From: an uncultured Bacilli bacterium
Lineage (GTDB): Bacteria > Bacillota_I > Bacilli_A > RF39 > UBA660
Assembly: GCA_934098665.1 (NCBI GenBank)
Contig: CAKOOO010000001.1
Location: 106,752 to 170,751, forward strand
Reading direction: 5' to 3'
DNA length: 64,000 bases
Shown: positions 6,831 to 23,428 of the stretch, piece after piece
Position numbering within the stretch: the first letter of the stretch is position 1
Layout of the letters: each line of letters opens with the position of its first letter
Notes under the pieces: model-generated
What the model was told of the DNA's origin: nothing
Seen by the model: the letters and a program-made list of their open reading frames with translations, nothing else
Databases searched by the model: none
Position numbers and translations under genes: made by a program

Positions 6831-8068
6831 AGGTCAGTATCTTTTATAAATGGAATTGCTCCGTATCTTCCATTTACATATCCTTTTTGAATATTTTCAT
6901 CTTTTCTTACAGAAAATGAATCAAGTGGATATAAATCTGATATTCCATTTTCAGGATTTTTCTCTGTAAACCAAATTTGATCTCTTCTTAACAATTCCAA
7001 ATTTAATAAATTAATAGCATGAGTTGTAAATATTAACTGACTATTAGCCTTATTTATTTCATTATTATTAAATAATTTAACTATAAATTCTACTAAAGCA
7101 GGATGTAAGCTTTTTTCTAATTCATCTACTACAATAACTTTTGACGTTTCAAACGCTTTTTTTAAAAATGGTGCAAATGCAAACAGTACTTTTGTTCCTG
7201 ATGACTCTTCAATAAAATTTAATTTATATGTATGAGTTACATTTTTATCATCTATAACTTCATGTTCCAGTTCTATATTAAAATTTTTAACTTTTAACTT
7301 TCCTTTTTGATTATCTATTTGTAATGCTAATAAATTATCCACTTCTTTTTCTTCATAATCAACATTAATGTCTTTTATTAAAATATCTGCTTCCTTTAAT
7401 AATTTTAATGCAAATTCTTTTAAATTTTCTTCTTTATTACTATAATCCACTAAATCTTTATCAGCAATACTTTCAAAAGAATCATAGGTATCAATTATAT
7501 TAGCAAACCATAAATAAGCATCTTTTGTTTTGGAATAATTCCAAGTTGTAGCTGTAGATAAAAATAATTTATTTTCAGTATTATTTGTTGATAACGACTC
7601 CAATTTATTTTTATCTATATTAAATTCATAATTATTTGTTTTAGTTCTTTTAAAAATATTAGTAGGTTTTTGGCTATAATAAGCATCTAATACTTCGTCA
7701 TAAATTTTATTTGCATCAGCACTAAAAAAATACCTATACTTAATATTATTTGCTATAAATATAAATTCAAACTCACTTGGTTTATTTTTACTAACTTCAT
7801 CAAATAAGAAAGGTTTTATAAAATTCCATTTACCACCCACGGGTATCAAATTTGAATTTCTAACCATTAATATTGCACAAGTTAGAGCTTTTAATATATT
7901 AGATTTTCCTGAAGCGTTTGCGCCATATATTGCAGCACTTTTAAGTAAAGAAATATTTTCATTAGATATTACATTATCTAAATTTTCTTCTCCACTACCC
8001 TTTTCCATAGATAATGTTACTTTATTTTTAAAAGATAAAAAATTTTTTATACTAAATTCTATAAGCAT
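6812..8068 (-). CDS. AAA-family ATPase (AbiLi-like/OLD-like ABC ATPase)
   Basis: The N-terminus MLIEFSIKNFLSFKNKVTLSM is followed by a Walker A (GANASGKSNILKAL). Walker B/D-loop is VVDELEKSLHP. H-loop is FTTHA. This is the typical partner of RloB. Confidence 0.7.
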   Translation of the reverse strand: MLIEFSIKNFLSFKNKVTLSMEKGSGEENLDNVISNENISLLKSAAIYGANASGKSNILKALTCAILMVRNSNLIPVGGKWNFIKPFLFDEVSKNKPSEFEFIFIANNIKYRYFFSADANKIYDEVLDAYYSQKPTNIFKRTKTNNYEFNIDKNKLESLSTNNTENKLFLSTATTWNYSKTKDAYLWFANIIDTYDSFESIADKDLVDYSNKEENLKEFALKLLKEADILIKDINVDYEEKEVDNLLALQIDNQKGKLKVKNFNIELEHEVIDDKNVTHTYKLNFIEESSGTKVLFAFAPFLKKAFETSKVIVVDELEKSLHPALVEFIVKLFNNNEINKANSQLIFTTHAINLLNLELLRRDQIWFTEKNPENGISDLYPLDSFSVRKDENIQKGYVNGRYGAIPFIKDTDLWLEDK

Positions 8069-8262: not shown

Positions 8263-8325
8263 ATATTATTTATTATTTTAAAAAATATATATACCCATGT
8301 TTGTTAAAACATGAGTATAAATTAA

Positions 8326-9198
8326 TTATTTAATTTGATTCATTACTTCTTCAGCAAAGTTATCATTTCTTTTTTCTAATCCTTCGCCAACTTCATAACG
8401 AACCATAGAAATGATTTCTCCACCATTATTTTTAACATAATCATTTACAGATATGTCGCCATTTTTAATAAATGGTTGTTCAGCAAGACAAATTTCTTTA
8501 TAATATTTTTTAATTCTTCCTTCTACCATTTTTTCAGCAATATCAGCAGGTTTTCCTTCATTAATTGCTAAATTTCTTTGAACTTCTCTTTCTGCATCTA
8601 AAACATCAGCAGGTACCTGGCTTGTAAAAACATAAAGTGGTTTCATAGCGGCAGACTGCATTGCTACATCTTTTGCTACATCTTCACTTGCACCTTTTAC
8701 TACAGTTAATACTGATATTTTACCACCCATATGGATGTATGCACCAAAATGTTCATCATCATTTTTAGTAATTTTTTCAAATCTTCTTAAAGAAAGTTTT
8801 TCACCAATTTTAGCTGTTTTTGCAACAATTAAATCATTTAATGTTTCACCAGCATATGGTAAGTTTTTTGCTTCCTCTAAAGTAGTAGCATTACCTTCTA
8901 AAATAGTTTTTCCTAAAGCATCAACAAATTCTTTAAATTCATCATTATTACTTACAAAGTCAGTTTCACTATTTACTTCGATAATAACAGCTTTATTACC
9001 ATTTACATAAATATTTGATAAACCTTCAGCAGCAATTCTACCTTCTTTTTTAGCAGATTTTGCAATACCTTTTTCTCTTAAATAATTAATTGCTTTATCT
9101 TTATCACCATCGCACTCAGATAGAGCTTTTTTACAGTCCATCATTCCTGCACCAGTAATTTCTCTTAATTCTTTTACTAAACTAGCAGTAATTTCCAT
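8326..9198 (-). CDS. tsf: elongation factor Ts
   Basis: The N-terminus MEITASLVKELREITGAGMMDCKKAL is the canonical EF-Ts start. 290 aa. Confidence 0.95.
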   Translation of the reverse strand: MEITASLVKELREITGAGMMDCKKALSECDGDKDKAINYLREKGIAKSAKKEGRIAAEGLSNIYVNGNKAVIIEVNSETDFVSNNDEFKEFVDALGKTILEGNATTLEEAKNLPYAGETLNDLIVAKTAKIGEKLSLRRFEKITKNDDEHFGAYIHMGGKISVLTVVKGASEDVAKDVAMQSAAMKPLYVFTSQVPADVLDAEREVQRNLAINEGKPADIAEKMVEGRIKKYYKEICLAEQPFIKNGDISVNDYVKNNGGEIISMVRYEVGEGLEKRNDNFAEEVMNQIK

Positions 9199-9208
9199 TA
9201 TATCCTCC

Positions 9209-10159
9209 TTAGTTTAAAGCATTTATTAATTCTTCTTTTTTCATTGAAGAATAACCTTTAACACCTTTTTCTTTAGCAATTGCTTTTAGTTCTGCAAGTG
9301 TTTTAGAACTTAAATCATCACTTTTTTCTTCTTCGTCTTCAACGATATCATTAATTAGGTAAACATCACTTTCTTTACCTTCTTTAACTTTTTCATCGAT
9401 AACTTCATCTTTAATTAATTCTTCCATTGAAGCATTTTTCTTATTTTTGTCTTCCTCAGTTACATAATCAACTATTTCTAAATTGTTTGCTTCACAAATA
9501 GCGTTTGTAAGTACTCCAAGTAAAACTTTAATACTTCTTACAGCATCATCATTTCCAGGAATAACATAGTCAACTAAATCTGGATCTCCATTAGTGTCAA
9601 CTACACCAAATACTGGAATATGAAGTTTTCTAGCTTCTTTAATTGCATTGTATTCTTTTCTTGGATCTACAATGATTAATGCCTGTGGAAGTTTAGTCAT
9701 TTCTCTAATACCACAAAGAAGTGTATTTAATTTGTCATATTCTTTCTTAATTTTAATAACTTCTTTTTTAGGTAGTGCATCAAATGTTCCATCACTTTCC
9801 ATTTTTTCAATGTCCTCAAGTCTTTTAACTCTTCTTCTAATAGTTCTAAAGTTAGTTAAAGTTCCTCCAAGCCATCTTTCAGTTACATAGTATGAACCAC
9901 TTCTAAGTGCTTCTTCTACAGCAACTTCTCCTGATTGTTTTTTAGTTCCTACAAATAAGAACTTTCCTCCATTACTAGCAATAGTCTTAATTTCTTCATA
10001 AGCCTCCTCTAGTAATTTTTGTGTTTTTTCAAGATCAATAATATAAATATCATCTCTTGAATTAAAAATGTACTCTTTCATTTTAGGATTCCATCTTTTA
10101 GTTTGATGTCCAAAATGAACTCCTGCTTCTAATAAATAACTCATAGAAACAACGGCCAT
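9209..10159 (-). CDS. rpsB: 30S ribosomal protein S2
   Basis: The N-terminus is [19 protein letters not shown]. 316 aa with an acidic C-terminal extension. Confidence 0.95.
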
Positions 10160-10303
10160 AAAATATCCCTCCTTCGTTATTACACCTTAATGCTTCTTCC
10201 TAACATTTCACCCTCTTCGGGCACTCGAAACATTAGTCCACATTAATGTTTATTTGCTTTTAAAGCCAATACTATATTATCAAATATTGTTAATAATTAC
10301 AAG

Positions 10304-10340
10304 TCTAAAAAAATCGCTCTTCACAAAAGCGAAGAACGAT
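10304..10340 (-). terminator. Rho-independent terminator of DGR target paralog A
   Basis: Hairpin cgctcttcac-aaaa-gcgaagaacg followed by a T-run on the minus strand (plus-strand A8 at 10305-10312). A homologous hairpin follows paralog B at 13202-13240. Confidence 0.6.
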
Positions 10341-11411
10341 TTATATTCCTAGTCTATAAGGATTAGTTTTACTTCCTGTTCCTCCAGTTACATACACATT
10401 AGATTTTAGATATAAGACTGGCCTAGCCGCGCGACCATAGGAAGCCGAATTGAAGTACAAATTGCCGACGCTAGTCACGGTAAGAGGAATCGAAGAATTA
10501 TGTGCACTCATAGTCCACTCTAAGCCATTTGAAAATAACCAGTTCTTATTCATATAACTTGCTGGGCTTCCAGCACTTCCTAACACTTCAGTAAATCCTT
10601 CTATTGCGTATCCCCAATCACTTGCATACATCAGTCCTATTTTTGAAGTACTTGTTGTATGAGTTGCTATTTCTTGTGTGTAGTAATTATCTGCTGTTTT
10701 ATATGTACTATCTCCTGCTCCTACATTATAGTATACATCTTCTATCATATTTCCATAATAATCACTTGCATCTATTCCATCTGATGAATAGTTACATAAT
10801 CCTACTGCTGATGTACCTGAATGGCAATAACTATCACAAGATGATGCTTTTCCTAAATAACATGTATTAAGTAAATTTTGAATATTACTTCCCATCCATG
10901 TTGAGTTACTTCCATATTTTATTGCTCCTATAGAATCATTTCTTATTAGTTTTACTCTATTTTGAGTTGTTGCACATCCACTTGTTAAGCATACTGGTAC
11001 GTTACCTATTATTCTCCATAATTCATCATTAAACCATACATAATTATTTGGATCTGTTCCTTGATATCTTTTTCCATGTATTGTAGAAGTACCTTTACTA
11101 TCAACCACATTACTTAAATTACTAGCATTTGAATTAAATGAAATATCACACGTTACTGTTCCCTTTATTTTTGTTATTTCTAGTTTCCATGTTTTAGGGT
11201 TCCATACTCCTTTTCCATGTTCACAATTAACACTTACATTATATTTTCCTTTTGATGGAAAAGATGTTGCATCATTTCCATCTACTTTTAAAGCTATAAT
11301 ACTTCCATTATAATTAAATGTTTTAATGCTTTTACTACTTATAACTATAAGTAAAGTAAAACTTATTATTATAAATATACTACATATTATTATTTTTTTG
11401 TTATATTTCAT
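10341..11411 (-). CDS. secreted surface protein, candidate DGR target (paralog A) with a C-terminal variable region (VR-A about 10425-10497)
   Basis: N-terminal signal anchor. The C-terminal about 250 aa are homologous to those of 13241..14899 (WRIIGNVPVCLTSGCATTQNRVKLIRN etc.). It ends with the VR ...NSASYGRAARPVLYLKSNVYVTGGTGSKTNPYRLGI. VR-A is flanked 3' by the GC-rich motif gcggctaggcc. Confidence 0.6.
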   Translation of the reverse strand: MKYNKKIIICSIFIIISFTLLIVISSKSIKTFNYNGSIIALKVDGNDATSFPSKGKYNVSVNCEHGKGVWNPKTWKLEITKIKGTVTCDISFNSNASNLSNVVDSKGTSTIHGKRYQGTDPNNYVWFNDELWRIIGNVPVCLTSGCATTQNRVKLIRNDSIGAIKYGSNSTWMGSNIQNLLNTCYLGKASSCDSYCHSGTSAVGLCNYSSDGIDASDYYGNMIEDVYYNVGAGDSTYKTADNYYTQEIATHTTSTSKIGLMYASDWGYAIEGFTEVLGSAGSPASYMNKNWLFSNGLEWTMSAHNSSIPLTVTSVGNLYFNSASYGRAARPVLYLKSNVYVTGGTGSKTNPYRLGI

Positions 11412-11661
11412 TTAACATCCTTCTTTCTAATAATTTTATTAATTTATATTTTGTATAATAATATAAATAATTATTTTTTTCATATTCTTTTTTTATTTCT
11501 ATTTCTAAATTATTTAATACAATATAATTTATATTATTTAAATTTTTTATATTCTTATATATTAATTTATCTTCATAAAACGTATAATATTTATTATTTT
11601 TTTTAATTAATATTAAATAATATGGATAAATCATTTTTAATACTTTATATCTTTCTTTCAT
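11401..11661 (-). CDS. hypothetical small protein, very AT-rich and of doubtful reality
   Basis: ORF track only. Composition is Lys/Tyr/Asn-rich and no motif was found. Confidence 0.2.
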   Translation of the reverse strand: MKERYKVLKMIYPYYLILIKKNNKYYTFYEDKLIYKNIKNLNNINYIVLNNLEIEIKKEYEKNNYLYYYTKYKLIKLLERRMLNEI

Positions 11662-11822
11662 ATTTATTTTATCTTTAGCGTCTATAGAAAAAATACGTAT
11701 ATTTTTTCGTCCATCTATTATTTTTTAAAAGTTAAAACTTTTAAGGATAATTAATATTTCTTATGCTAACACTTTGTATAGCCTTAACCATATAAATTTC
11801 AAACATAAGAAGTTGCTAAAAA

Positions 11823-11879
11823 AGCCGCGTTCCCGTTAGAAGCATTGTTGCTATTCACATTAAGAGGGTTCGAAGAAGA
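11823..11879 (-). repeat. DGR template-repeat (TR)-like segment
   Basis: Minus-strand reading is tct tcg AAc cct ctt AAt gtg AAt Agc AAc AAt gct tct AAc ggg AAc gcg gct (S S N P L N V N S N N A S N G N A A). It aligns with VR-B (13325-13397) and VR-A (10425-10497). The clear anchor cases are the TR AAC Asn codons matching TAC in VR-B, in the motif A-S-N-G-N versus A-S-Y-G-Y. It shares the GC-rich gcggct end, then diverges (TR gcggcttttttagc versus VR gcggctaggccagtc), as IMH* versus IMH would. Confidence 0.55.
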
Positions 11880-11910
11880 CTCCTTTTTAAAAATAATTAC
11901 CCTAATATAT

Positions 11911-12408
11911 TTAATAATATCTATTTATAATATGTTTTAATTTATCTTTGTTTACAAAATTATAACTATGTTTATAATTTTGTATTGAATAAAAATATTT
12001 TTTTATATCTATTTTAAGTGCATATATATTATTAATTTTATGTTTTAATTTTTCAATATTATATAGTAATAAATTAATAGCATATGTTAGTCCCATACCT
12101 TTTCTTGTTGCAGTAATTTCTTTACATAAATATTTTGATAATTTTGGGATTAATATATATTTTGCTACATAATGATTTATTACTTTATTAATTATATTTT
12201 CACTCATTACAACTCTTATTTTAGGATCTTTTACTAAAAATATATTATAATTACTTTTAATATATAAATTATTTTCAAGTATATATTTAATATAAATTAA
12301 ATACTCTATTTTATATTTTTCAAATGCAAGAATTTTCTTTCTATTTTTCACTCCTTTCAATATTTCATTATTATATATATCTAATAAATCATTTATTATT
12401 ACTATCAT
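11911..12408 (-). pseudogene. DGR-type reverse transcriptase, N-terminal fragment (finger domain plus motifs 1 and 2) truncated before motif 3
   Basis: 165 aa. It matches the DGR RT N-terminus and motif 1 (FLVKDPKIRVVMSENIINKVINHYV, compare Bordetella bRT FLVYEPKPRLISALEFKDRLVQHAL) and motif 2 (LKIDIKKYFYSI, compare LKSDFSKFFPSI). A stop follows motif 2 by 20 codons and no YxDD lies downstream in any frame. The TR-like segment follows immediately. Confidence 0.6.
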
Positions 12409-12730
12409 GCTCTATCTTATTATCCATCCACTTATTACACATTTTATTTATTTCACTTAACTTATAAGTAACTTTTTTTAAATTACTTTCACTAATATAA
12501 TGTTTAATAAATATTCTTTCTAATATATAATCTATAACACTAATAAATGAATTTATTTCTACTTTATATATAGATATATTTTTATAATTATTTTCATTAT
12601 TAACTTTATTTATAAAATATAATAATTTTATAGATAATTCTTTTAATTTATCTTTATAAAAATAATCTTTTTTAGGTATATTTTCTATTAAATTTATTAT
12701 ACTTTCTAAATTTTTCCATAGAACATTTAT
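12389..12730 (-). other. open frame of 113 codons lacking an ATG/GTG/TTG start; possible Avd-like accessory gene remnant
   Basis: Manual translation of the minus strand from 12730 to 12389 reads INVLWKNLESIINLIENIPKKDYFYKDKLKELSIKLLYFINKV...ILERIFIKHY...KIEHDSNNK with no stop. It is helical, roughly the size of Avd, and lies between the RT fragments. It overlaps the RT N-fragment start by 20 nt in another frame. Confidence 0.2.
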
Positions 12731-12742
12731 TTAATTTATCTA

Positions 12743-13114
12743 TTAAAAAATCCACTTTTTTTTATCTAAATTTTTAAATGACATATCTAAATATTTAGAA
12801 TAAGTATTTATTTTACCAAAGTCTTTTATTAAAGGATCTTTATCTACATCTATAATTTGATAAGATATTTTAGCATCAGATAAAGTATTAATAACTTTAT
12901 TTATTGATGTATCAGGAAAACCTGATACTCCACCTTTCAATACTTTATAACCAAATAAAGTATTCATAATATAAACATCAATATTTTTACATTGATAAAA
13001 TTTGCCATGATTTTTAAAAATTATTAAAAATGATTTATCATCATGTTTTACATCATTAGATGTATAGCACTTTACACTTTTATCTATACATTTTGGTGTA
13101 TCTACCTCCCAGTT
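12743..13114 (-). pseudogene. reverse transcriptase C-terminal fragment (motif 7-like LFGYK plus thumb), located upstream of the N-terminal fragment
   Basis: The ORF-track 74-aa ORF (12743..12967) extends without stops up to 13114: NWEVDTPKCIDKSVKCYTSNDVKHDDKSFLIIFKNHGKFYQCKNIDVYIMNTLFGYKVLKGG.... NTLFGYKVL matches RT motif 7 (FLGYR in bRT). The 67 aa after it match the length of the bRT thumb. HDD may be a degenerate YxDD. Confidence 0.35.
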
Positions 13115-13201
13115 TTACATTATTTTTACTTTTATTAAACATTTTCAAATCTAAAACTTCCTTTCTACTTTACATTGAAAATGTAATATTTACATTTTAT
13201 C

Positions 13202-13240
13202 AAAATCGGCTTCACAAAGCGAAGCACGATTTTTTATTTT
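13202..13240 (-). terminator. terminator hairpin of DGR target paralog B
   Basis: tcggcttcac-aaa-gcgaagcacga, homologous to the hairpin after paralog A. Confidence 0.5.
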
Positions 13241-14899
13241 TTATATTCCTAGTGTATAAGGATCAGTTTTACTTCCAGTACCACCAGTTTTATATACATT
13301 AGATTTTAGATATAAGACTGGCCTAGCCGCGTACCCGTAAGAAGCATTGTGGATGTCCAAATAGCCGTCGTAGTAGACGTTAAGAGGGGATGAAGAATTA
13401 TATGCACTCATTGTCCACTCATATCCATTTGAAAATAACCAGTTCTTATTCATATAACTTTCTGGGTTTCCACTTCTTCCGAGTACTTTAGTAAAACCTT
13501 CTATTGCGTATCCCCAGTCACTTGCATACATTAAGCCTATTTTTGAAGTTGCACTTGCATAACTTGCTATTTCTTTTGTATATTGGTCATCTGCATTTAC
13601 ATATGAAGCGCTTGATGGTACTCCTACATTGTAGTATACATCTTCTATCATATTTCCATAATAATCACTTGCATCTATTCCATCTGAAGAATAGTTGCAT
13701 AATCCTACTGCTGATGTAGAATATGAATAACAATAACTATCACATGAGGATACTTTTCCTAAATAACATGTATTTAGTAAATTTTGAATATTACTTCCTA
13801 TCCATGTAAATGGACTGGATGAGCTAAAGGCAGTTTGATTAAATGCTATTGCACCTATTGAATTGTTTCTTATTAGTTTTACTCTATTTTGAGTTGTTGC
13901 ACATCCACTTGTTAGACATACTGGTACGTTTCCGATTATTCTCCATAATTCATCGTTATACCACACATAGTTATCTGGATCTGTTCCTTGATATCTTATT
14001 CCATGTGTTGTACTTGTCCCTTTTGTATCTACTATAGTAGAAAGTAGCTCACTATTTGAGGGTGTTTTTTGAGTAAATGATATATCACAGTTTACAAAAT
14101 CTGACCAATTAGATATAACTAAACCATTTAATTTATTATCCCATACTGCACTATTTGTTCCACTGCAATTTGTTATACTTTTTGTATATCCTGATAAAAG
14201 GTATGCTGGAGTTGCAACATTTACTGTTACATCTTTTTCTGGTGGAAGAGGATCTCCCATTGTACATTTTGCATTAGTAACTCTATATTTACCTTTAAAA
14301 GTTTTATTTGCTAGTGCTGACTGATCTAAATCTAAATTATAAAATCTATTTGTAAAATTCCATGTTTGTTTTTTATCTTTATTTGAGGAAGAGTTTGCTA
14401 TAACTGCACCACTTACTATAGTTGCAGTTGTAGTGGTTAAATTAAAGTTTTTTTCTTCCACATAATTATTTGTTCCTGTATTTGGACCTTTTGCCTCTAA
14501 AGTAAGTTCTTTTGTTGCTCCACTTGTAACAGGCGTAGGACTTTTTCCATAAATACTTGAATCACTATCATAAGTAAATGTAATATCATATGTACAGCTT
14601 ACTGAATATTCTTCACTACCTGATATTAAAGATACTACTAAAGAAGATGTATTTTCCGCTACATAATTATCTCTATTACTTTGACTCATACCTTTAGGGT
14701 CAATTGTTAAAGCAAAATCAGCATTTGTTACATCTAAAATAGAGTTTGCTAAATTTTTTGCAGCTATATTAACATTTGCTTTATTTGAAATATCCACTAA
14801 AAAATTACCAATATATGCAAATGCCACTGATACTACAAGTACAATTAATACTACAGATATTATAATAGTTTTAATATTTTTCTTATCTAATTTTTTCAT
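13241..14899 (-). CDS. secreted protein, candidate DGR target (paralog B): TasA/camelysin-like N-terminal region with a SipW-type signal, fused to the diversified C-terminal domain (VR-B about 13325-13397)
   Basis: The N-terminus MKKLDKKNIKTIIISVVLIVLVVSVAFAYIGNF resembles the SipW-cognate signal. Residues about 30-230 are homologous to 48674..49351 and 55080..55748. The C-terminal about 250 aa are homologous to paralog A. VR is ...SPLNVYYDGYLDIHNASYGYAARP with Tyr codons where the TR has Asn. Confidence 0.6.
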   Translation of the reverse strand: MKKLDKKNIKTIIISVVLIVLVVSVAFAYIGNFLVDISNKANVNIAAKNLANSILDVTNADFALTIDPKGMSQSNRDNYVAENTSSLVVSLISGSEEYSVSCTYDITFTYDSDSSIYGKSPTPVTSGATKELTLEAKGPNTGTNNYVEEKNFNLTTTTATIVSGAVIANSSSNKDKKQTWNFTNRFYNLDLDQSALANKTFKGKYRVTNAKCTMGDPLPPEKDVTVNVATPAYLLSGYTKSITNCSGTNSAVWDNKLNGLVISNWSDFVNCDISFTQKTPSNSELLSTIVDTKGTSTTHGIRYQGTDPDNYVWYNDELWRIIGNVPVCLTSGCATTQNRVKLIRNNSIGAIAFNQTAFSSSSPFTWIGSNIQNLLNTCYLGKVSSCDSYCYSYSTSAVGLCNYSSDGIDASDYYGNMIEDVYYNVGVPSSASYVNADDQYTKEIASYASATSKIGLMYASDWGYAIEGFTKVLGRSGNPESYMNKNWLFSNGYEWTMSAYNSSSPLNVYYDGYLDIHNASYGYAARPVLYLKSNVYKTGGTGSKTDPYTLGI

Positions 14900-15009
14900 A
14901 TTTATCTTTCCTATCTTACATTTATAATAATACCATAGTCTTATTATTTTTCCAAGTACATAAATAAAAAAAGTTATAACTAAAATTAATTAATTATAAC
15001 TTATATTTT

Positions 15010-17628: not shown

Positions 17629-18774
17629 CTAATTTATATTTAAATTATTTTCATTTAATTTTTTATTATTATTTTTCATTCTTATAAGTAATAATGTTAT
17701 ACCTATTATTAAAACAATAATAATTACATTTAATGCACATATTAACCATATATTTGGCATATTAGATTTAGAAATATTTATTATATAACTTTGACTTTCA
17801 GTTCCATCAGTTATCTTTATTTCTATTTTGCTATTGTTTTTCAATTTTTCATTTCCAATTATTTCATAAGTTAATTTGTCATTATCATTTTCAATATTAA
17901 TATCTAGTTTATCTTCGTTATTTATTTTTAAAGTATAATTATAGTTATTTCTATAATAATTTAATATATATCCATTTACACTAATATTTTTAAGTGAAAT
18001 ACTTTCTTTACAAATAGACTCTTTTTTTACATTTAAAGTGTATTCTTTTACTTTATTATCTTCAGCTGTAACTTTAATAATAATTTTATTTTCTCCAACT
18101 TTTAAGTTTTCATTTCCGATTATTTCATATGTTGCTTTGGCATCATTTAGCGTTATATCAAGTTTTAATTTATCTACGTTTTCAGTTAATGTTAGATTAT
18201 ATTCTAAAGTATCTTTTTCAAAGTTGAAATCTTTTATTTCTTTTATACTAAATGTTTTAATACTTGCATCACTACTTTTTTGTGGTGTTGTTGTTTGAGG
18301 ATTTGATGGTTGGGGATTTGATGGTTTAGGACTTGGCGTAGGTGTTGGAGTTGGTTCTGGTGTTGGAGTTGGTTCTGGTGTTGGAGTTGTTTCTGGTTTA
18401 TTTGTAACAGTTACTGAAGCACTTCCTGAAACATTTACAGCATTTCCATCATTTGCACTTGTTACATCTCCAGAAAGTGTAAGAGTTATTGTTCCAACTC
18501 CTGTAGATGTACAAGTAACTGGAAATGATTTACTTGTATCAAGTGCATCTAATGTAGCATCAGCTATATCAAGTTTGCAACCACTTACAGGTCCTGAAGA
18601 AGCAACATGTAAATTCCACGCTGCTGCTTCATTCATATTTACATATGCTGTAAAGCTTTCACCTGAATATATGCTACTTGAACTAACTGTTAAACTAGCA
18701 CTTGCAGCATATACATTTAAGCTAACTATTAAAAATGATAATATTCCAGTTAAAATTAATTTTAATTTTTTCAT
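17629..18774 (-). CDS. cell-surface protein with a signal peptide, Ig-like N-domain, Pro/Thr linker, cadherin-like beta-sandwich repeats and a C-terminal TM anchor
   Basis: Linker TTPTPEPTPTPEPTPTPTPSPKPSNPQPSNPQ. Repeats of the type KTFSIKEIKDFNFEKDTLEYNLTL...ATYEIIGNENL. C-terminal TM is IWLICALNVIIIVLIIGITLLLI followed by basic residues. It lies 13 nt downstream of the dockerin protease. Confidence 0.6.
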   Translation of the reverse strand: MKKLKLILTGILSFLIVSLNVYAASASLTVSSSSIYSGESFTAYVNMNEAAAWNLHVASSGPVSGCKLDIADATLDALDTSKSFPVTCTSTGVGTITLTLSGDVTSANDGNAVNVSGSASVTVTNKPETTPTPEPTPTPEPTPTPTPSPKPSNPQPSNPQTTTPQKSSDASIKTFSIKEIKDFNFEKDTLEYNLTLTENVDKLKLDITLNDAKATYEIIGNENLKVGENKIIIKVTAEDNKVKEYTLNVKKESICKESISLKNISVNGYILNYYRNNYNYTLKINNEDKLDINIENDNDKLTYEIIGNEKLKNNSKIEIKITDGTESQSYIINISKSNMPNIWLICALNVIIIVLIIGITLLLIRMKNNNKKLNENNLNIN

Positions 18775-18787
18775 TTTTTTATCCTTT

Positions 18788-21700
18788 CTATCCTATTAAT
18801 TTTGTTCCTATCAAATGTTGTCTTATTCTAAGTAAGTCTGCAGAATTTACTGTGTTATCATAATTTATGTCTGATGCTGTAAAATATATTCCATTAAGTG
18901 GTTTTACCCCAATTAGATGTTGTCTTATTTTAAGTAAATCAGCTGAATTTATTATACCATCGCCAGTAATATCACCAGTAACTACATTTGTAAATTCCTT
19001 AATTAAGCTACCAGAATCATATATTCTTGTTTTAGAACCAGTATAAATTAAATTATTTGATGAATCAACAGTTACACTATAATTATCTCCAAGTCTAATA
19101 TGATTTTTAAAATTACTTTCAGTTGTTCCAACAATTATCTTATTAATTGTATTACTATTTTCATCAACTGAATAATCATTTATTGAATATGTGAAACTTG
19201 ATTTAAATATTGGATATAAAACTAATTCTTTTTCTAAAGTTATTTCATTTCCTATGCTATATTTTTGACCAGTACCATCTACTTTTGTATTCCAAGAGTC
19301 AAAATAATAACCAGCCATTTCAATAGTACAATTTTCAATTTTAATAGTTTGTCCAATTTCATATTCTTTTTCATTTTTGTTTGTACAACTATCATCTAAA
19401 CAATATATAATTTTAACTTTAATTTTTTCCCATTGAGCATATAAGGTTATATCCTCGGTAATGCTTATCAATTGTTCATCTTCATAAGATACACCCGTTC
19501 CATCTGCTTTAGTATTCCAATTTTTAAATATATAATTATCTCTTGTAAATATATTTTTAGATAAATTAGCACTCACATTTTTTATTAGTTCCATATTTGG
19601 CATATTACCAATACCTTGGTTTGGATTAAACGTAATTGTATATTTTTCTTCTTTCCATTGTGCATGTAAGGTTATATTATTTTGTTCATCAAATGGAATA
19701 TTATCAAAAATTATAGAATCACTTGATTTTGCAGAAAATTTTATTCCTGTTCCGTCTTGTTTAGTGTTCCAGTTATCAATATAATAATTTTCTTTTGAGA
19801 AATCTAAATTTCCAAATGAAATAGTTCCTTCACTAGGATAAGTCATAGTCAAATCAACTGTTTTATTATTATTTGATGTCACACCATTTCCATCAAATGT
19901 TATTTTATATTGATTTTCACTCCAAATTGCATATAATTTCAAATCTTCATTTATTCCACTTTCAATTAATTGCTCATCATAATATACTATTCCTGTACCA
20001 TCTGCTTTAGTATTCCATTCTTTAAATGTATGACCTTTATATGTAAATAAGTTTTTAACCAAATTAAACTTTCTATTAATAGCAACATCTTGTGAACTTT
20101 CTTCATTAGATGGATTGTTGCTATTAAATGTAATTGTTTTTGCTTCCATTATTGTAACCTGTATATCATCTTTATAACCATCATACAAACTAGTTATATG
20201 AATTGTCGTTACACCAATTTTCTTTGGAGTAATGACACCCGATGAACTAATAGTTAAATACTCATCATCATATGTCCATTTAATGTTCTTTGCATTATTA
20301 GTATTTGGGAAAATTAAATCATATATATTCTTTGCTTCCGAAATTTTCATTTCAAAATCATCAATTGTTTCAGTGAAGTCAAATTTATCCAGTAATGTTG
20401 TTAATATAGGAAATCTTTTATAACCGTCAATTTCTGGTTGTGTCCATTGTGACTTATGTTCAAAATAATTTGCGTAATTGTTTGCTATTAAATCATCTAA
20501 TGTTACAGCAGTATTATTATTAATCGTTTCAGTACCATTTGATGTAATTTTTCCATATAATTTGTTTTCATTTGTATACCATACACCACTTATATTTACC
20601 GAATTAGTTTGATTAATATAGCCAACAGCTGCACCTAATCTAGTTGCTACTTGTGTTTTATAACTACCAGCACTTATAGCGTTATTTATAGTAAGATTAT
20701 TTACTAAACCACTATCACCAACTATGCCTCCGATAGCACTATCACCAAGTGAGCCATTACCACTCACTTTGCTATAACTTGCTGAGTCACTAATTGTTAC
20801 GTTAAGTTTTTGCCCTTCAGCAACACCAATTATTCCTCCGGCAAAAACTGTATCTATGTTACCAACACTTACATTCGAATACAAATTGTACATATTACAA
20901 TTTACATTTTTAGTAACTGCTTTTGATACATTTATACCTCCTATTAATCCACCATTATAGTATGATGAATTAACTTTACCGCCAATAGCAGATACATTAT
21001 TAATTTCTATTTCATCTGTTATAGATATTGTACCAGCCAATGCACCAGCATCTAAATAACCATTAATATTTACATCTTTTATTATCAAATTTTTTATGTA
21101 ATTATTTTTTCCATAAATATTTCCAAATATTCCAACTGGGTCTTTACCTATATCTTTTGGTCTATTTATGTATACACCACTTATCACATGATTATTTCCA
21201 TTAAAGCTTCCATAAAAATCACTAATTGGTAACCATCCAGCACCAGAATTATAAAATAATCCTTTTGTATTAGTTGTATCATATGATAAATCTAAATCAT
21301 TAGTTAGCACATAATGATTATCTTTTGTATTTAAATTTCTTAATCCATTTAAATCGGATGCAGTTTTAATTTCATAGGGATTTTCTTTCGTTCCAATACC
21401 CAACATTTTATTATTATGTTTCGTTAGTTTCCATTCAATTTTATCATATTTTTCATTATTATAATAAACCTCAACTGTATATGTACCTAATTTCACATTT
21501 TCACTATTATATGATAAAAGTGCGTTAATATAATTAGAAACAGAATAATTTCTAAATACATGAAATAAATTTGTAACATCTTCATTATTTTGATTCAATA
21601 TTTTAAATGTTAAATTATCATTTGATGATAAATTTCTAGAAACTCCTGAAACAACAAATACATTATTATCATCAAAAGTTACTGTATGTGGATCTGAAAT

Positions 21701-23428
21701 ACATTTGTTATCATCTAAAGTACATTTAGTCAAGATTTTTTCACTTGTTGATCTAATATTTGTTAAATCAATAAATTTATCTTCACCAACATTACTTGTA
21801 TGAATAGAGCCGTAATAATCATATTTAATATTATCTCCTTTGAATGTTAATTTAAACTTTTCTGTATTTTCATCTAGAACTATATTGTTTTCTGAAATAT
21901 CAATAGTGTAAAGTCCTGGTTGAGAATATGTTTGAGATTTTAATAATTCATAACTTGAAACATATTCATAATCTGAAACAATTACTTCATTATTTCGATA
22001 ATAAACATATATAGTTTTATTGTATGAATTAACAAAAAATTTAACTTTTTTTAATAATTCTTTTGTATTTCCTTTTGTAAATGTAGTATATTGTCCAGTT
22101 GCTCTATAAGAATTGTCATAATCTACTTCACTTACATTAGTTATACTACTATAAGAACTTTTCATTGTATTATAAGGTAAGTATATAAAAGTATCATTAT
22201 TTCCCCATGAATTTTGTATTATCCATGCCCCATTTATCGTATATAAATCACCTTTAGTACAAGAATAATTATTTCCTACCTTTGTAGCATTAGTTATTTC
22301 AAAATCTGTTTTATTTAAACAAATATTATGTGTATAATTATCATCCCACCCAATTACTGAAACTGCGTGGTTCATTCCTGAACTAGGATTCCATTTATAA
22401 GGTACATAATATATAACATTTTTTCCATCAGTATTTAATGCTTTTTCTGTTCCAGTTGGTATATATTCTACCGATAAATTTGTATAAGCTCCAACAGAAA
22501 CATGTATAGAACCATTATTAACAATTTGCTCTTTTAAAAGATTTACTAAAGCATCGACGTCAGACTGATTATTGGTTGATAGCGGATTAAAAAATAGAAA
22601 TTCATTTAAACTATATTCAGTATTATCTATATTTGTGATTTCAAATGGTGAAAGTTTAGAAGTATAATTATAATCATACTTCCAATATTTATTGCTTTTT
22701 ATATTTTTATCGCTATTGTAATTTGTTCCAGCACTACAATTTCCAGCGCACAAAACTGGAGAAATACCAATTGCTGTTGAATTAGCAAATCTTAGCATAT
22801 TTCCGCCCTCATTTAGGTTGTCACCTATAACTGGACTATTATTATATAAAAATGGGTTACTACCTGCATCAATTGAATTTAAGTCTTTAGTAGTTGCATA
22901 ATCTATTTGTTTTTCAGAAAAAGTTAACATTTTAGTTTTGTTACTTTTTATAGCTAAATGGCTTTCCAAAGAAGTTGCTGAAGAAAAGGCCCAACATAAC
23001 CCCTCAGAACCTTGGTTATAAACATTTGTAATATAACCATCATCTCTTAAATTATAATATGATAATGATGTTTTTTCATTGGAATCACCTTGTTTAGTTA
23101 AAACATCATTTTTATATGAATGTTCTATTATATATATTTCTGGAATATAACCATATTCACTACTCTTACCATTTTTTAAATATTCAACATAATCAGGATT
23201 TAAGTATGGCTCTTCATCTTCCTTATTCTTTTCAGTTAAAATAATTTCACCAGTTTCATTATAAATATCCTCAATATATTTTTTAGCTTCCATAGGAAGA
23301 TAATTATAACTTTCTGATTTTAATACTCTTTCTATTTTATTAGAGCTAAAATGTTTAAATAATATAAAAGTACCTATAACCAAAACCACACTAAAAAATA
23401 AAACGATTTTTTTTACACAACTTCTCAC
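18788..23428 (-). CDS. giant (1546 aa) secreted papain-like (C1) cysteine protease with GLUG/beta-helix region, Listeria-Bacteroides (Flg_new) repeats and a C-terminal type I dockerin
   Basis: The C1 active site is QGSEGLCWAFSSATSLESH. His is in NHAVSVIGWDDN and Asn in IIQNSWGN. GTKENPYEI is followed by Gly-rich GLUG-like repeats (AGALAGT, GGLIGGI, FAGGIIGV). There are four repeats of the type YTITFNPNQG...FKNWNTKADGTGVSY. Dockerin duplicated segments are GDITGDGIINSADLLKIRQHL and SDINYDNTVNSADLLRIRQHL. Confidence 0.8.
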   Translation of the reverse strand: MRSCVKKIVLFFSVVLVIGTFILFKHFSSNKIERVLKSESYNYLPMEAKKYIEDIYNETGEIILTEKNKEDEEPYLNPDYVEYLKNGKSSEYGYIPEIYIIEHSYKNDVLTKQGDSNEKTSLSYYNLRDDGYITNVYNQGSEGLCWAFSSATSLESHLAIKSNKTKMLTFSEKQIDYATTKDLNSIDAGSNPFLYNNSPVIGDNLNEGGNMLRFANSTAIGISPVLCAGNCSAGTNYNSDKNIKSNKYWKYDYNYTSKLSPFEITNIDNTEYSLNEFLFFNPLSTNNQSDVDALVNLLKEQIVNNGSIHVSVGAYTNLSVEYIPTGTEKALNTDGKNVIYYVPYKWNPSSGMNHAVSVIGWDDNYTHNICLNKTDFEITNATKVGNNYSCTKGDLYTINGAWIIQNSWGNNDTFIYLPYNTMKSSYSSITNVSEVDYDNSYRATGQYTTFTKGNTKELLKKVKFFVNSYNKTIYVYYRNNEVIVSDYEYVSSYELLKSQTYSQPGLYTIDISENNIVLDENTEKFKLTFKGDNIKYDYYGSIHTSNVGEDKFIDLTNIRSTSEKILTKCTLDDNKCISDPHTVTFDDNNVFVVSGVSRNLSSNDNLTFKILNQNNEDVTNLFHVFRNYSVSNYINALLSYNSENVKLGTYTVEVYYNNEKYDKIEWKLTKHNNKMLGIGTKENPYEIKTASDLNGLRNLNTKDNHYVLTNDLDLSYDTTNTKGLFYNSGAGWLPISDFYGSFNGNNHVISGVYINRPKDIGKDPVGIFGNIYGKNNYIKNLIIKDVNINGYLDAGALAGTISITDEIEINNVSAIGGKVNSSYYNGGLIGGINVSKAVTKNVNCNMYNLYSNVSVGNIDTVFAGGIIGVAEGQKLNVTISDSASYSKVSGNGSLGDSAIGGIVGDSGLVNNLTINNAISAGSYKTQVATRLGAAVGYINQTNSVNISGVWYTNENKLYGKITSNGTETINNNTAVTLDDLIANNYANYFEHKSQWTQPEIDGYKRFPILTTLLDKFDFTETIDDFEMKISEAKNIYDLIFPNTNNAKNIKWTYDDEYLTISSSGVITPKKIGVTTIHITSLYDGYKDDIQVTIMEAKTITFNSNNPSNEESSQDVAINRKFNLVKNLFTYKGHTFKEWNTKADGTGIVYYDEQLIESGINEDLKLYAIWSENQYKITFDGNGVTSNNNKTVDLTMTYPSEGTISFGNLDFSKENYYIDNWNTKQDGTGIKFSAKSSDSIIFDNIPFDEQNNITLHAQWKEEKYTITFNPNQGIGNMPNMELIKNVSANLSKNIFTRDNYIFKNWNTKADGTGVSYEDEQLISITEDITLYAQWEKIKVKIIYCLDDSCTNKNEKEYEIGQTIKIENCTIEMAGYYFDSWNTKVDGTGQKYSIGNEITLEKELVLYPIFKSSFTYSINDYSVDENSNTINKIIVGTTESNFKNHIRLGDNYSVTVDSSNNLIYTGSKTRIYDSGSLIKEFTNVVTGDITGDGIINSADLLKIRQHLIGVKPLNGIYFTASDINYDNTVNSADLLRIRQHLIGTKLIG

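Follow-up and report, generated by a model that had tools for sequence, protein, structure and literature searches.

A GC-rich motif as the probable recipient-side junction of a decayed diversity-generating retroelement in an uncultured Bacilli bacterium

What does a short GC-rich motif mark when it stands at the end of two variable genes in an otherwise AT-rich genome? The question is raised by a locus of an uncultured Bacilli bacterium (GTDB RF39; UBA660), which we analysed over 64,000 nt of the forward strand of assembly GCA_934098665.1 (CAKOOO010000001.1:106,752–170,751), hereafter the window. This window carries a diversity-generating retroelement (DGR) with a template repeat (TR), the remains of a reverse transcriptase (RT) gene, and two target genes, each with a variable region (VR). 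A first-pass annotation singled out the 11-mer GCCTAGCCGCG in both target genes and likened it to the initiation of mutagenic homing (IMH) sequence of characterised DGRs, whose altered counterpart in the TR is IMH*. We put at about three in four the probability that the motif is the recipient-side junction between two parts of a DGR target.

The 11-mer occurs on the plus strand at 10421–10431 and 13321–13331, exactly where the annotation had placed it; a search that tolerated up to 2 mismatches found no third site in the 64-kb window. Frequent occurrence away from variable regions, which had been named in advance as the observation that would count against an IMH, is thus not what the window contains. 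Read on the coding (minus) strand, the motif is CGCGGCTAGGC. Its opening, CGCGGCT, has three minus-strand sites in the 64 kb, in VR1 (10425–10431), the TR (11823–11829), and VR2 (13325–13331). Beyond this shared region the TR continues as GCGGCTTTTTTAGCAAC and both VRs as GCGGCTAGGCCAGTC, the departure that had been described. The two target genes agree at 50 of 75 positions (67%) within the VR and at 36 of 36 (100%) from CGCGGCT onward, so the motif does lie at the 3′ boundary of variability in each. It is also as conspicuously GC-rich as claimed: the 12-mer CGCGGCTAGGCC has 10 G or C in 12, against 25.4% G+C for the window. The sameness of the two copies is not surprising in itself, because target genes 1 and 2 are paralogs that are 81% identical and share further identical runs of 56, 49, and 36 nt. 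What is informative about the motif is its position and its comparison with the TR, for which the following features, all on the minus strand, are needed.

10341–11411, minus strand: target gene 1, an open reading frame (ORF) of 356 aa in which VR1 lies close to the 3′ end; none of its 547 homologs has a Pfam domain.
10396–10424, minus strand: flank present only beside the VR, here of VR1 and the same as that of VR2; the motif at 10421–10431 straddles its 5′ edge.
10425–10499, minus strand: VR1, 75 nt, ending CGCGGCT, aligned to the TR.
11805–11822, minus strand: flank present only beside the TR (IMH*-like), TTTTTAGCAAC and then TTCTTAT; alignment and covariation place the latter as the 5′ strand of RNA helix 1.
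11823–11879, minus strand: TR remnant in two blocks, 11857–11879 and 11823–11856, ending AACGCGGCT, with 18 nt missing between the blocks.
13241–14899, minus strand: target gene 2, an ORF of 552 aa in which VR2 lies close to the 3′ end; it is paralogous to target 1 and has no Pfam domain.
13296–13324, minus strand: VR-only flank of VR2, AGGCCAGTCTTATATCTAAAATCTAATGT, encoding RPVLYLKSNV; the motif at 13321–13331 straddles its 5′ edge.
13325–13399, minus strand: VR2, 75 nt, ending CGCGGCT, which aligns to the TR remnant and has 48% G+C, against 25% for the window.

The comparison can be extended to about 90 related loci (L-numbers) of gut Bacilli, among them a set of 80 from metagenome-assembled genomes (MAGs), which carry the labels uncultured Bacilli, Tenericutes, Mollicutes, and Mycoplasma sp. 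CAG:472. In three of them (L012, L013, and L014) the cassette is intact: the TR stands right after the RT gene, the two VRs are equal in length, and 83–100% of the mismatches fall at TR adenines. With a slash at the junction, the 3′ ends of these three read ...GGTTATGCAGTT/TTTTATAGCTTCTTATG in the TR and ...GCAGTT/AGGCCAGTCTTATATCT in the VR. The two sides are GCAGCT/TTTTATAAC and GCAGCT/AGACCAGTC in L010, and in the window they are GCGGCT/TTTTTAGCAAC (TR) and GCGGCT/AGGCCAGTC (VR). The 6 nt before the junction vary from genome to genome (GCGGCT, GCAGTT, GCAGCT, TCTGCC, TCGGCC, GCCGCT) and usually equal those of the genome's own TR. Two loci, L094 and L096, have GCAGCT in the TR and GCGGCT in the VR, and because of this GCA-to-GCG change adenine mutagenesis can be said to extend to 4 nt from the junction.

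An identity profile over 39 TR–VR pairs locates the break. The 7 nt that precede the Arg codon are 92–100% identical; the Arg and Pro codons, which most clades have in common between TR and VR and which are replaced in the clade of the window, are 58–76% identical; and the second base of the Val codon is only 15% identical, the VR having GTC and the TR GCC or GAC. Past that base identity is 61–66% over the next bases and homology is then lost. It follows from this profile that the 11-mer fuses the end of the templated sequence (CGCGGCT) to the start of a recipient-only flank (AGGCC). Downstream of the junction the wider family has CGNCCAGTCCTTTATCT in the VR versus CGNCCAGCCCTTTAT(AG/TA) in the TR, and the window clade has AGGCCAG-TCTTAT versus TTTTTAGCAAC-TTCTTAT. 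CGCGGCT itself is lineage-specific, and the conserved core of the flank lies farther downstream, at CCNGTCTTNTATCT. Since the VR enters a flank of its own at the same nucleotide at which the TR departs into an RNA helix, the site has an asymmetry of the IMH/IMH* type. On this point the annotation stands as to the operational definition and the donor/recipient difference, which the comparative data back; it does not stand as to the 11-mer being one element, for the 11-mer joins two unlike parts.

The flank that opens at the junction encodes RPVLYL, which hardly varies among 53 distinct VR flanks or 43 aligned proteins, the flanks being a sample conditioned on this motif because the regular expression that collected them demanded parts of its coding pattern and left the choice of Val and Leu codons free. 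This invariance invites the explanation that the motif is coding sequence and nothing else. Both copies would then encode the conserved end of a domain (AARPVLYL), kept alike by duplication, gene conversion, and purifying selection, with no role in cis, and the similarity to the TR would stop where it does because that part of the gene was the source of the TR. The 81% identity of the paralogs and their other long identical runs fit such an origin, as does the remark by Wu et al. 2018 (PMC5758913) that the IMH region encodes the constant residues at VR 3′ ends. However, the codons are constrained where the peptide leaves them free. The Val codon is GTC in 51 of the 53 flanks, though GTC makes up 1.6% of Val codons in the other genes of the window, and the second Leu is CTN in all 53 and TTA in none, though TTA accounts for 60% of Leu codons and CTA for 6.6%. 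The Arg codon (AGG, AGA, or CGN) and the Pro codon vary freely; AGG makes up 7.1% of Arg codons in the window, and GCG 3.7% of Ala codons. AGACCTGTT is one example of a synonymous-codon form of AGGCCAGTC. The choice of GTC and CTN thus goes beyond what the peptide needs and argues against a purely protein-level explanation. So do the covariation of the 6 nt before the junction with the TR of the same genome and the fixed nonadenine difference in the Val codon of the TR (GCC or GAC versus GTC) in many clades. We consider it improbable that coding alone accounts for the motif. A conserved AARP-type peptide of a paralog family had been foreseen as a possible refutation, and half of this is borne out: RPVLYL is indeed invariant in a large family, but in the examined sequences it is found at VR ends only, and CCNGTCTTNTATCT occurs in the window at the two VRs only.

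On the donor side, the TR is followed by a structured RNA of ~130 nt (11687–11811 in the window) in which four helices covary and AUCC is invariant; it also has a loop UUAAGG and a hairpin with a UACG tetraloop. Its sequence is conserved through the family. When 34 examples are aligned, paired cells amount to 88.6%, versus 66.6% in shuffles, and the covariation score of 0.604 (0.226 in shuffles) was matched by 0 of 500 shuffles; slid controls gave 0.06–0.28. Helix 1 joins the TR-only flank to a strand ~40 nt downstream, UUCUUAU (11811–11805) with AUAAGAA (11764–11758) in the window and CCUUUAU with AUAAAGG elsewhere. It shows compensatory changes at 3 of 6 pairs (CG:18/UA:10, CG:27/UA:6, and UA:18/CG:10). 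A pairing of AAGGA with the downstream AUCC was considered and rejected: AUCC stays fixed when AAGGA changes, whereas the TR flank changes. An Rfam scan of 10000–15000 (E ≤ 1) returned nothing for this RNA and one sub-threshold chance intron match in target 1. Its other features, with the downstream strand of helix 1, are as follows.

11687–11711, minus strand: stem-loop of ~9 bp with a UACG tetraloop (helix 4), a putative analog of the Avd-binding stem-loop; compensatory changes in 9 of 9 pairs.
11758–11764, minus strand: ATAAGAA, the 3′ strand of helix 1, placed by covariation; a candidate analog of the Bordetella Sp (spacer) primer strand.
11773–11796, minus strand: hairpin with a UUAAGG loop (helix 2); compensatory changes in 8 of 9 pairs.

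The Bordetella DGR offers a model for this RNA. There, the template:primer duplex is made by TR117–129 and Sp47–56, and the cDNA begins at TR G117, inside IMH*. In 207 of 278 DGRs the TR is closely followed by a tetraloop stem-loop that binds Avd. The RNA described here is alike in having a helix between the TR 3′ end and a downstream strand and a ~9-bp stem-loop of the UNCG type (UACG) downstream of the TR. It differs in that it follows the RT gene rather than lying between TR and RT, and in sequence it is unrelated and belongs to no Rfam family. We regard it as probably the Sp-like part of the DGR RNA, with the TR-only flank, by the same analogy, as the putative template strand of a template:primer duplex.

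These observations also allow the boundary to be set on the RNA side only. The start of the cDNA would be fixed next to helix 1, the VR would need mere homology to the cDNA ends, and the conservation of its flank would come from effects on mRNA or translation or from a shared origin of the TR and VR 3′ ends. The covarying helix at the TR 3′ flank is what such a mechanism calls for; in Bordetella, priming takes place inside IMH* and is positioned by the RNA, retrohoming into the VR is still incompletely understood, and at our locus no hairpin adjoins the VR. However, the Bordetella target IMH together with its stem-loop is sufficient for homing to a heterologous gene, and a 21-bp part of the IMH reportedly sets directionality. 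Moreover, the T/C difference between VR and TR flanks is fixed over wide divergence, which would not be expected if homology alone counted. An exclusively RNA-side boundary therefore seems to us rather unlikely.

A two-part junction would work as follows. (A)CGCGGCT, the last stretch copied from the TR, GC-rich and common to donor and recipient, would give the incoming cDNA its 3′ homology anchor. AGGCC..., which opens the target-only flank AGGCCAGTCTTATATCT (RPVLYL), would mark the gene as a recipient. The TR leaves homology at the same nucleotide, into TTTTTAGCAAC-TTCTTAT, where TTCTTAT pairs with ATAAGAA ~40 nt downstream, and the ~130-nt RNA would position a self-primed start of reverse transcription, by analogy with the DGR RNA of the Bordetella phage. 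The anatomy of the site, its pattern across relatives, the decay of the cassette, and the covariation of the RNA are shown by the sequences; a contribution of the two halves to cDNA integration or directionality is putative.

It is useful to contrast this site with the IMH and IMH* of phage BPP-1 (Doulatov 2004, Guo 2008/2011; summarised in PMC3240598 and PMC5758913). In both systems the element lies at the VR 3′ end, right after the adenine-mutagenised region, and has a GC-rich start that is identical in TR and VR and is followed by an imperfect repeat with fixed nonadenine differences. The TR copy belongs to an RNA duplex beside the cDNA start in BPP-1 and, by analogy, would do so here. BPP-1 differs in having 5 point differences within 21 bp, whereas the TR of the window clade swaps AGGCCAG (7 nt) for 9–11 unrelated nt. 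A GC-rich hairpin with a GRNA loop follows 4–34 bp downstream in BPP-1, and here there is none. Unlike in BPP-1, the VR flank here is inside coding sequence, 27 codons before the stop. More generally, Wu et al. 2018 (PMC5758913) define IMH/IMH* as an imperfect TR–VR repeat that comes right after the region of adenine-to-any-base change and opens GC-rich, and they could predict such pairs for nearly all DGRs. Checked against that definition, the site shows a 3′ variability boundary, a shared GC-rich start (CGCGGCT; ACGCGGCT in VR2), and an imperfect nonadenine repeat. It has no GC-rich inverted repeat shortly downstream. Since Wu et al. 2018 (PMC5758913) detected a repeat of this kind in just 34% of DGRs, the missing hairpin is not strictly disqualifying.

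Several points weigh against a two-part junction at this site. The shared GC block is 7–8 nt long here and 14 in BPP-1, and in relatives it holds a mutable A; it is therefore not a protected element. No conserved DNA hairpin was found within 70 nt of the VR end (71 nt folded for six VR flanks, z from −1.8 to +1.4), and the hairpins farther downstream are terminator-type only, ~70 nt past the VR-only flank and ~100 nt past the junction. A CCAGT...ACTGG repeat at VR2, considered as a VR-side hairpin, is not conserved. The TR of the window clade lacks the Arg and Pro codons and has unrelated nucleotides before helix 1, 11 in the window and 9 in its clade relatives; if helix 1 is where the cDNA begins, as in Bordetella, its first stretch would mismatch the VR. 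Within the window, TR–VR mismatches fall at adenine in 6 of 12 cases for VR2 and 9 of 20 for VR1. Finally, the 53 flanks were gathered by part of the pattern that they display, and the counts over related loci are not counts of independent events because the sequences share ancestry.

Does the motif still do anything in this genome? The genes of the cassette, all on the minus strand, run in the order target 2, MutS-like (MSL) ORF, avd, RT, TR, RNA element, 86-aa ORF, target 1. Those not yet described, with the hairpins that follow the targets, are these.

10314–10332, minus strand: terminator-like hairpin past target 1, from a hairpin search.
11401–11661, minus strand: small conserved ORF of 86 aa, lying between target 1 and the RNA element of the TR; almost every related locus has it.
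11911–12408, minus strand: RT remnant of 165 aa without YxDD, from a partial Pfam RVT_1 match and alignment to full-length relatives.
12389–12730, minus strand: avd remnant of 113 open codons that lacks a start codon and matches Pfam bAvd.
12743–12967, minus strand: MSL accessory ORF, called at 74 aa and cut short at the 3′ end by a deletion.
13209–13225, minus strand: terminator-like hairpin past target 2, ~70 nt (71–100 nt) beyond the end of the VR-only flank.

The identity of the element as a DGR is supported by the RVT_1 fragment, the bAvd-like frame, and intact relatives with the same gene order. The window, however, has no intact catalytic RT and shows no ongoing diversification of its VRs. 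Alignment with relatives shows that its RT joins KKYFYSI of motif 2 directly to the C-terminal EKYFYSLENY...RYY through an in-frame loss of 188 aa that includes YxDD; its Pfam match covers only positions 7–90 of the RVT_1 profile. The RT of intact relatives is 353 aa long with YxDD at residue 232 (L009 and L011–L014), and close relatives are 83–91% identical. The deletion is bounded by two short direct repeats, of which KKYFYSI belongs to motif 2 and EKYFYSL stands close to the C-terminus, and the 165-aa form makes up a protein cluster (P0001) of 39 member sequences that is present in at least 3 samples. The avd frame matches Pfam bAvd at E 1.3e-5 over profile positions 12–105 of 107, under the curated cutoff. 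A deletion of ~80 nt relative to L010 and L013 takes out the avd start and the end of the MSL gene, and it is this 5′ deletion that has left avd without a start codon. Compared with both VRs and with the TRs of relatives, the TR is 18 nt short. The retroelement in the window is thus a fossil that has lost its RT catalytic core, its avd start, and 18 nt of its TR, and its VRs are frozen alleles. Because the retroelement is dead, no homing direction is being set in this genome.

The VRs themselves tell the same story. VR1 and VR2 are identical across three samples (the window, L089, and L090) that have the same RT deletion and whose rpsB and tsf genes beside the cassette differ by dozens of single-nucleotide polymorphisms (SNPs). 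The exact target-1 protein was found on 9 contigs. Compared with L089 and L090, window positions 8300–10160 show these dozens of SNPs in rpsB/tsf and an indel, and the adjoining 6-kb cassette shows only 2–6 differences. This contrast suggests either recombination of the flank or a recent spread of the cassette allele. The middle of VR1 is nearer to the TR of L010 (…AACTCGGCTTCGAATGGC…) than to that of the window, and VR2 follows the window TR; judging from these sequences, the two VRs may have last been written from different versions of the TR.

A dead cassette could nonetheless be supplied in trans by an intact DGR that lies outside the window in this genome, and the motif would then be a working IMH. 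The window is a 64-kb part of the genome, there are genomes that contain several DGRs (Wu et al. 2018, PMC5758913), and some related MAGs gave more than one locus. Set against this, the window contains no second TR, RT, or VR-type flank. The identity of the VRs in three samples with diverged flanking genes, the recurrence of one target-1 protein on 9 contigs, the half of TR–VR mismatches that are nonadenine, and the shortened TR likewise speak against continued writing. We judge service in trans to be highly improbable.

Decay of this kind has occurred independently in many lineages of the DGR family (also in L010, L016, L024, and L029), with TRs 3–18 nt shorter than their VRs. In five loci (L004–L008, 6001–7030) the RT is split, the TR falls 6 nt short of the VRs, and the VRs are the same in five samples. 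Another (L002, 6001–7480) has a frameshifted RT and an AT-rich insertion of ~300 nt in its TR (7136–7440), and in L094 (reverse strand, ~8370–8570) nearly all of avd and RT is gone between two KDKLK repeats. L001 has, at 513–2618, a GC-rich VR-type target (…GNFSYNYADAREVDTSGFVSSGVNYSRGVRPSVSIKPG…) upstream of an N-terminally truncated RT and unlike the TR of that locus, which suggests that its cassette is rearranged or chimeric. Loci were screened automatically for adenine bias; the window and several decayed loci, which the screen missed because of TR indels, were inspected by hand instead.

In its architecture the cassette resembles types B2 and D of Wu et al. 2018 (PMC5758913): the avd–RT–TR order (B2), an MSL gene, two targets with C-terminal VRs, and a TR rich in AAC codons. 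It differs in that the MSL of relatives is ~100–130 aa long, a second small ORF follows the TR, the target has no Pfam family, and the copy in the window is degenerate. The ORF upstream of avd is assigned to the MSL accessory type of the same study because its family matches MutS domain I: Pfam MutS_I is matched in 13 of 18 members (best E 1.8e-5), and MSH6 in PDB at E 0.04. Its frame runs on upstream of the first ATG (12743–13040, …KSFLIIFKNHGKFYQCKNIDVYIMNTLFGYKV…), where it matches the N-terminal half of full-length relatives of ~120 aa. The 86-aa ORF, whose homologs have 86–95 aa, overlaps the start of the downstream target, and its family is present in nearly all loci. As a second MutS-like protein it was rejected because its similarity to MutS domain I and to the MSL family is marginal (MutS_I in 4 of 20 members at E 0.03, hhalign probability 16%). 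Checked for a C-type lectin or Ig fold that would display the VR, the targets gave no Pfam match and only noise in a PDB profile search, and an AlphaFold2 model from a 43-sequence alignment had a predicted local distance difference test (pLDDT) score of 33, too low for a fold search. A search for a phage origin found no exact match of the VR flank in viral contigs. Elsewhere in the window, 18788–23428 (minus strand) encodes a 1546-aa protein with repeated modules of ~75 aa and two C-terminal dockerin-like repeats, and just downstream of it 17629–18774 encodes a 381-aa Pro/Thr-rich surface protein.

IMH-type boundaries are already known for DGRs, and the site described here adds another case, in a nonfunctional copy. 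The two surface-protein genes should not be annotated as actively hypervariable, because their alleles are fixed and the retroelement is non-working. The family to which they belong has a compact, sequence-defined IMH/IMH* pair in dozens of genomes. Because one side of this pair is constrained at the nucleotide level and the other covaries as an RNA helix, clear mutational tests can be designed. A tentative extension, which we put forward with considerable doubt, is that donor and recipient are told apart throughout the family by a tiny nucleotide code. The VR would be marked by CCNGTCTTNTATCT with its rare GTC, and the TR by GCC or GAC or by a replaced block that serves as a helix strand. RNA folding would shape IMH*, DNA recognition would shape IMH, and a single T/C difference might set directionality. 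If this is true, the many broken cassettes, with their RT deletions, split TRs, and losses of avd and RT, would constitute a natural series of frozen and active alleles.

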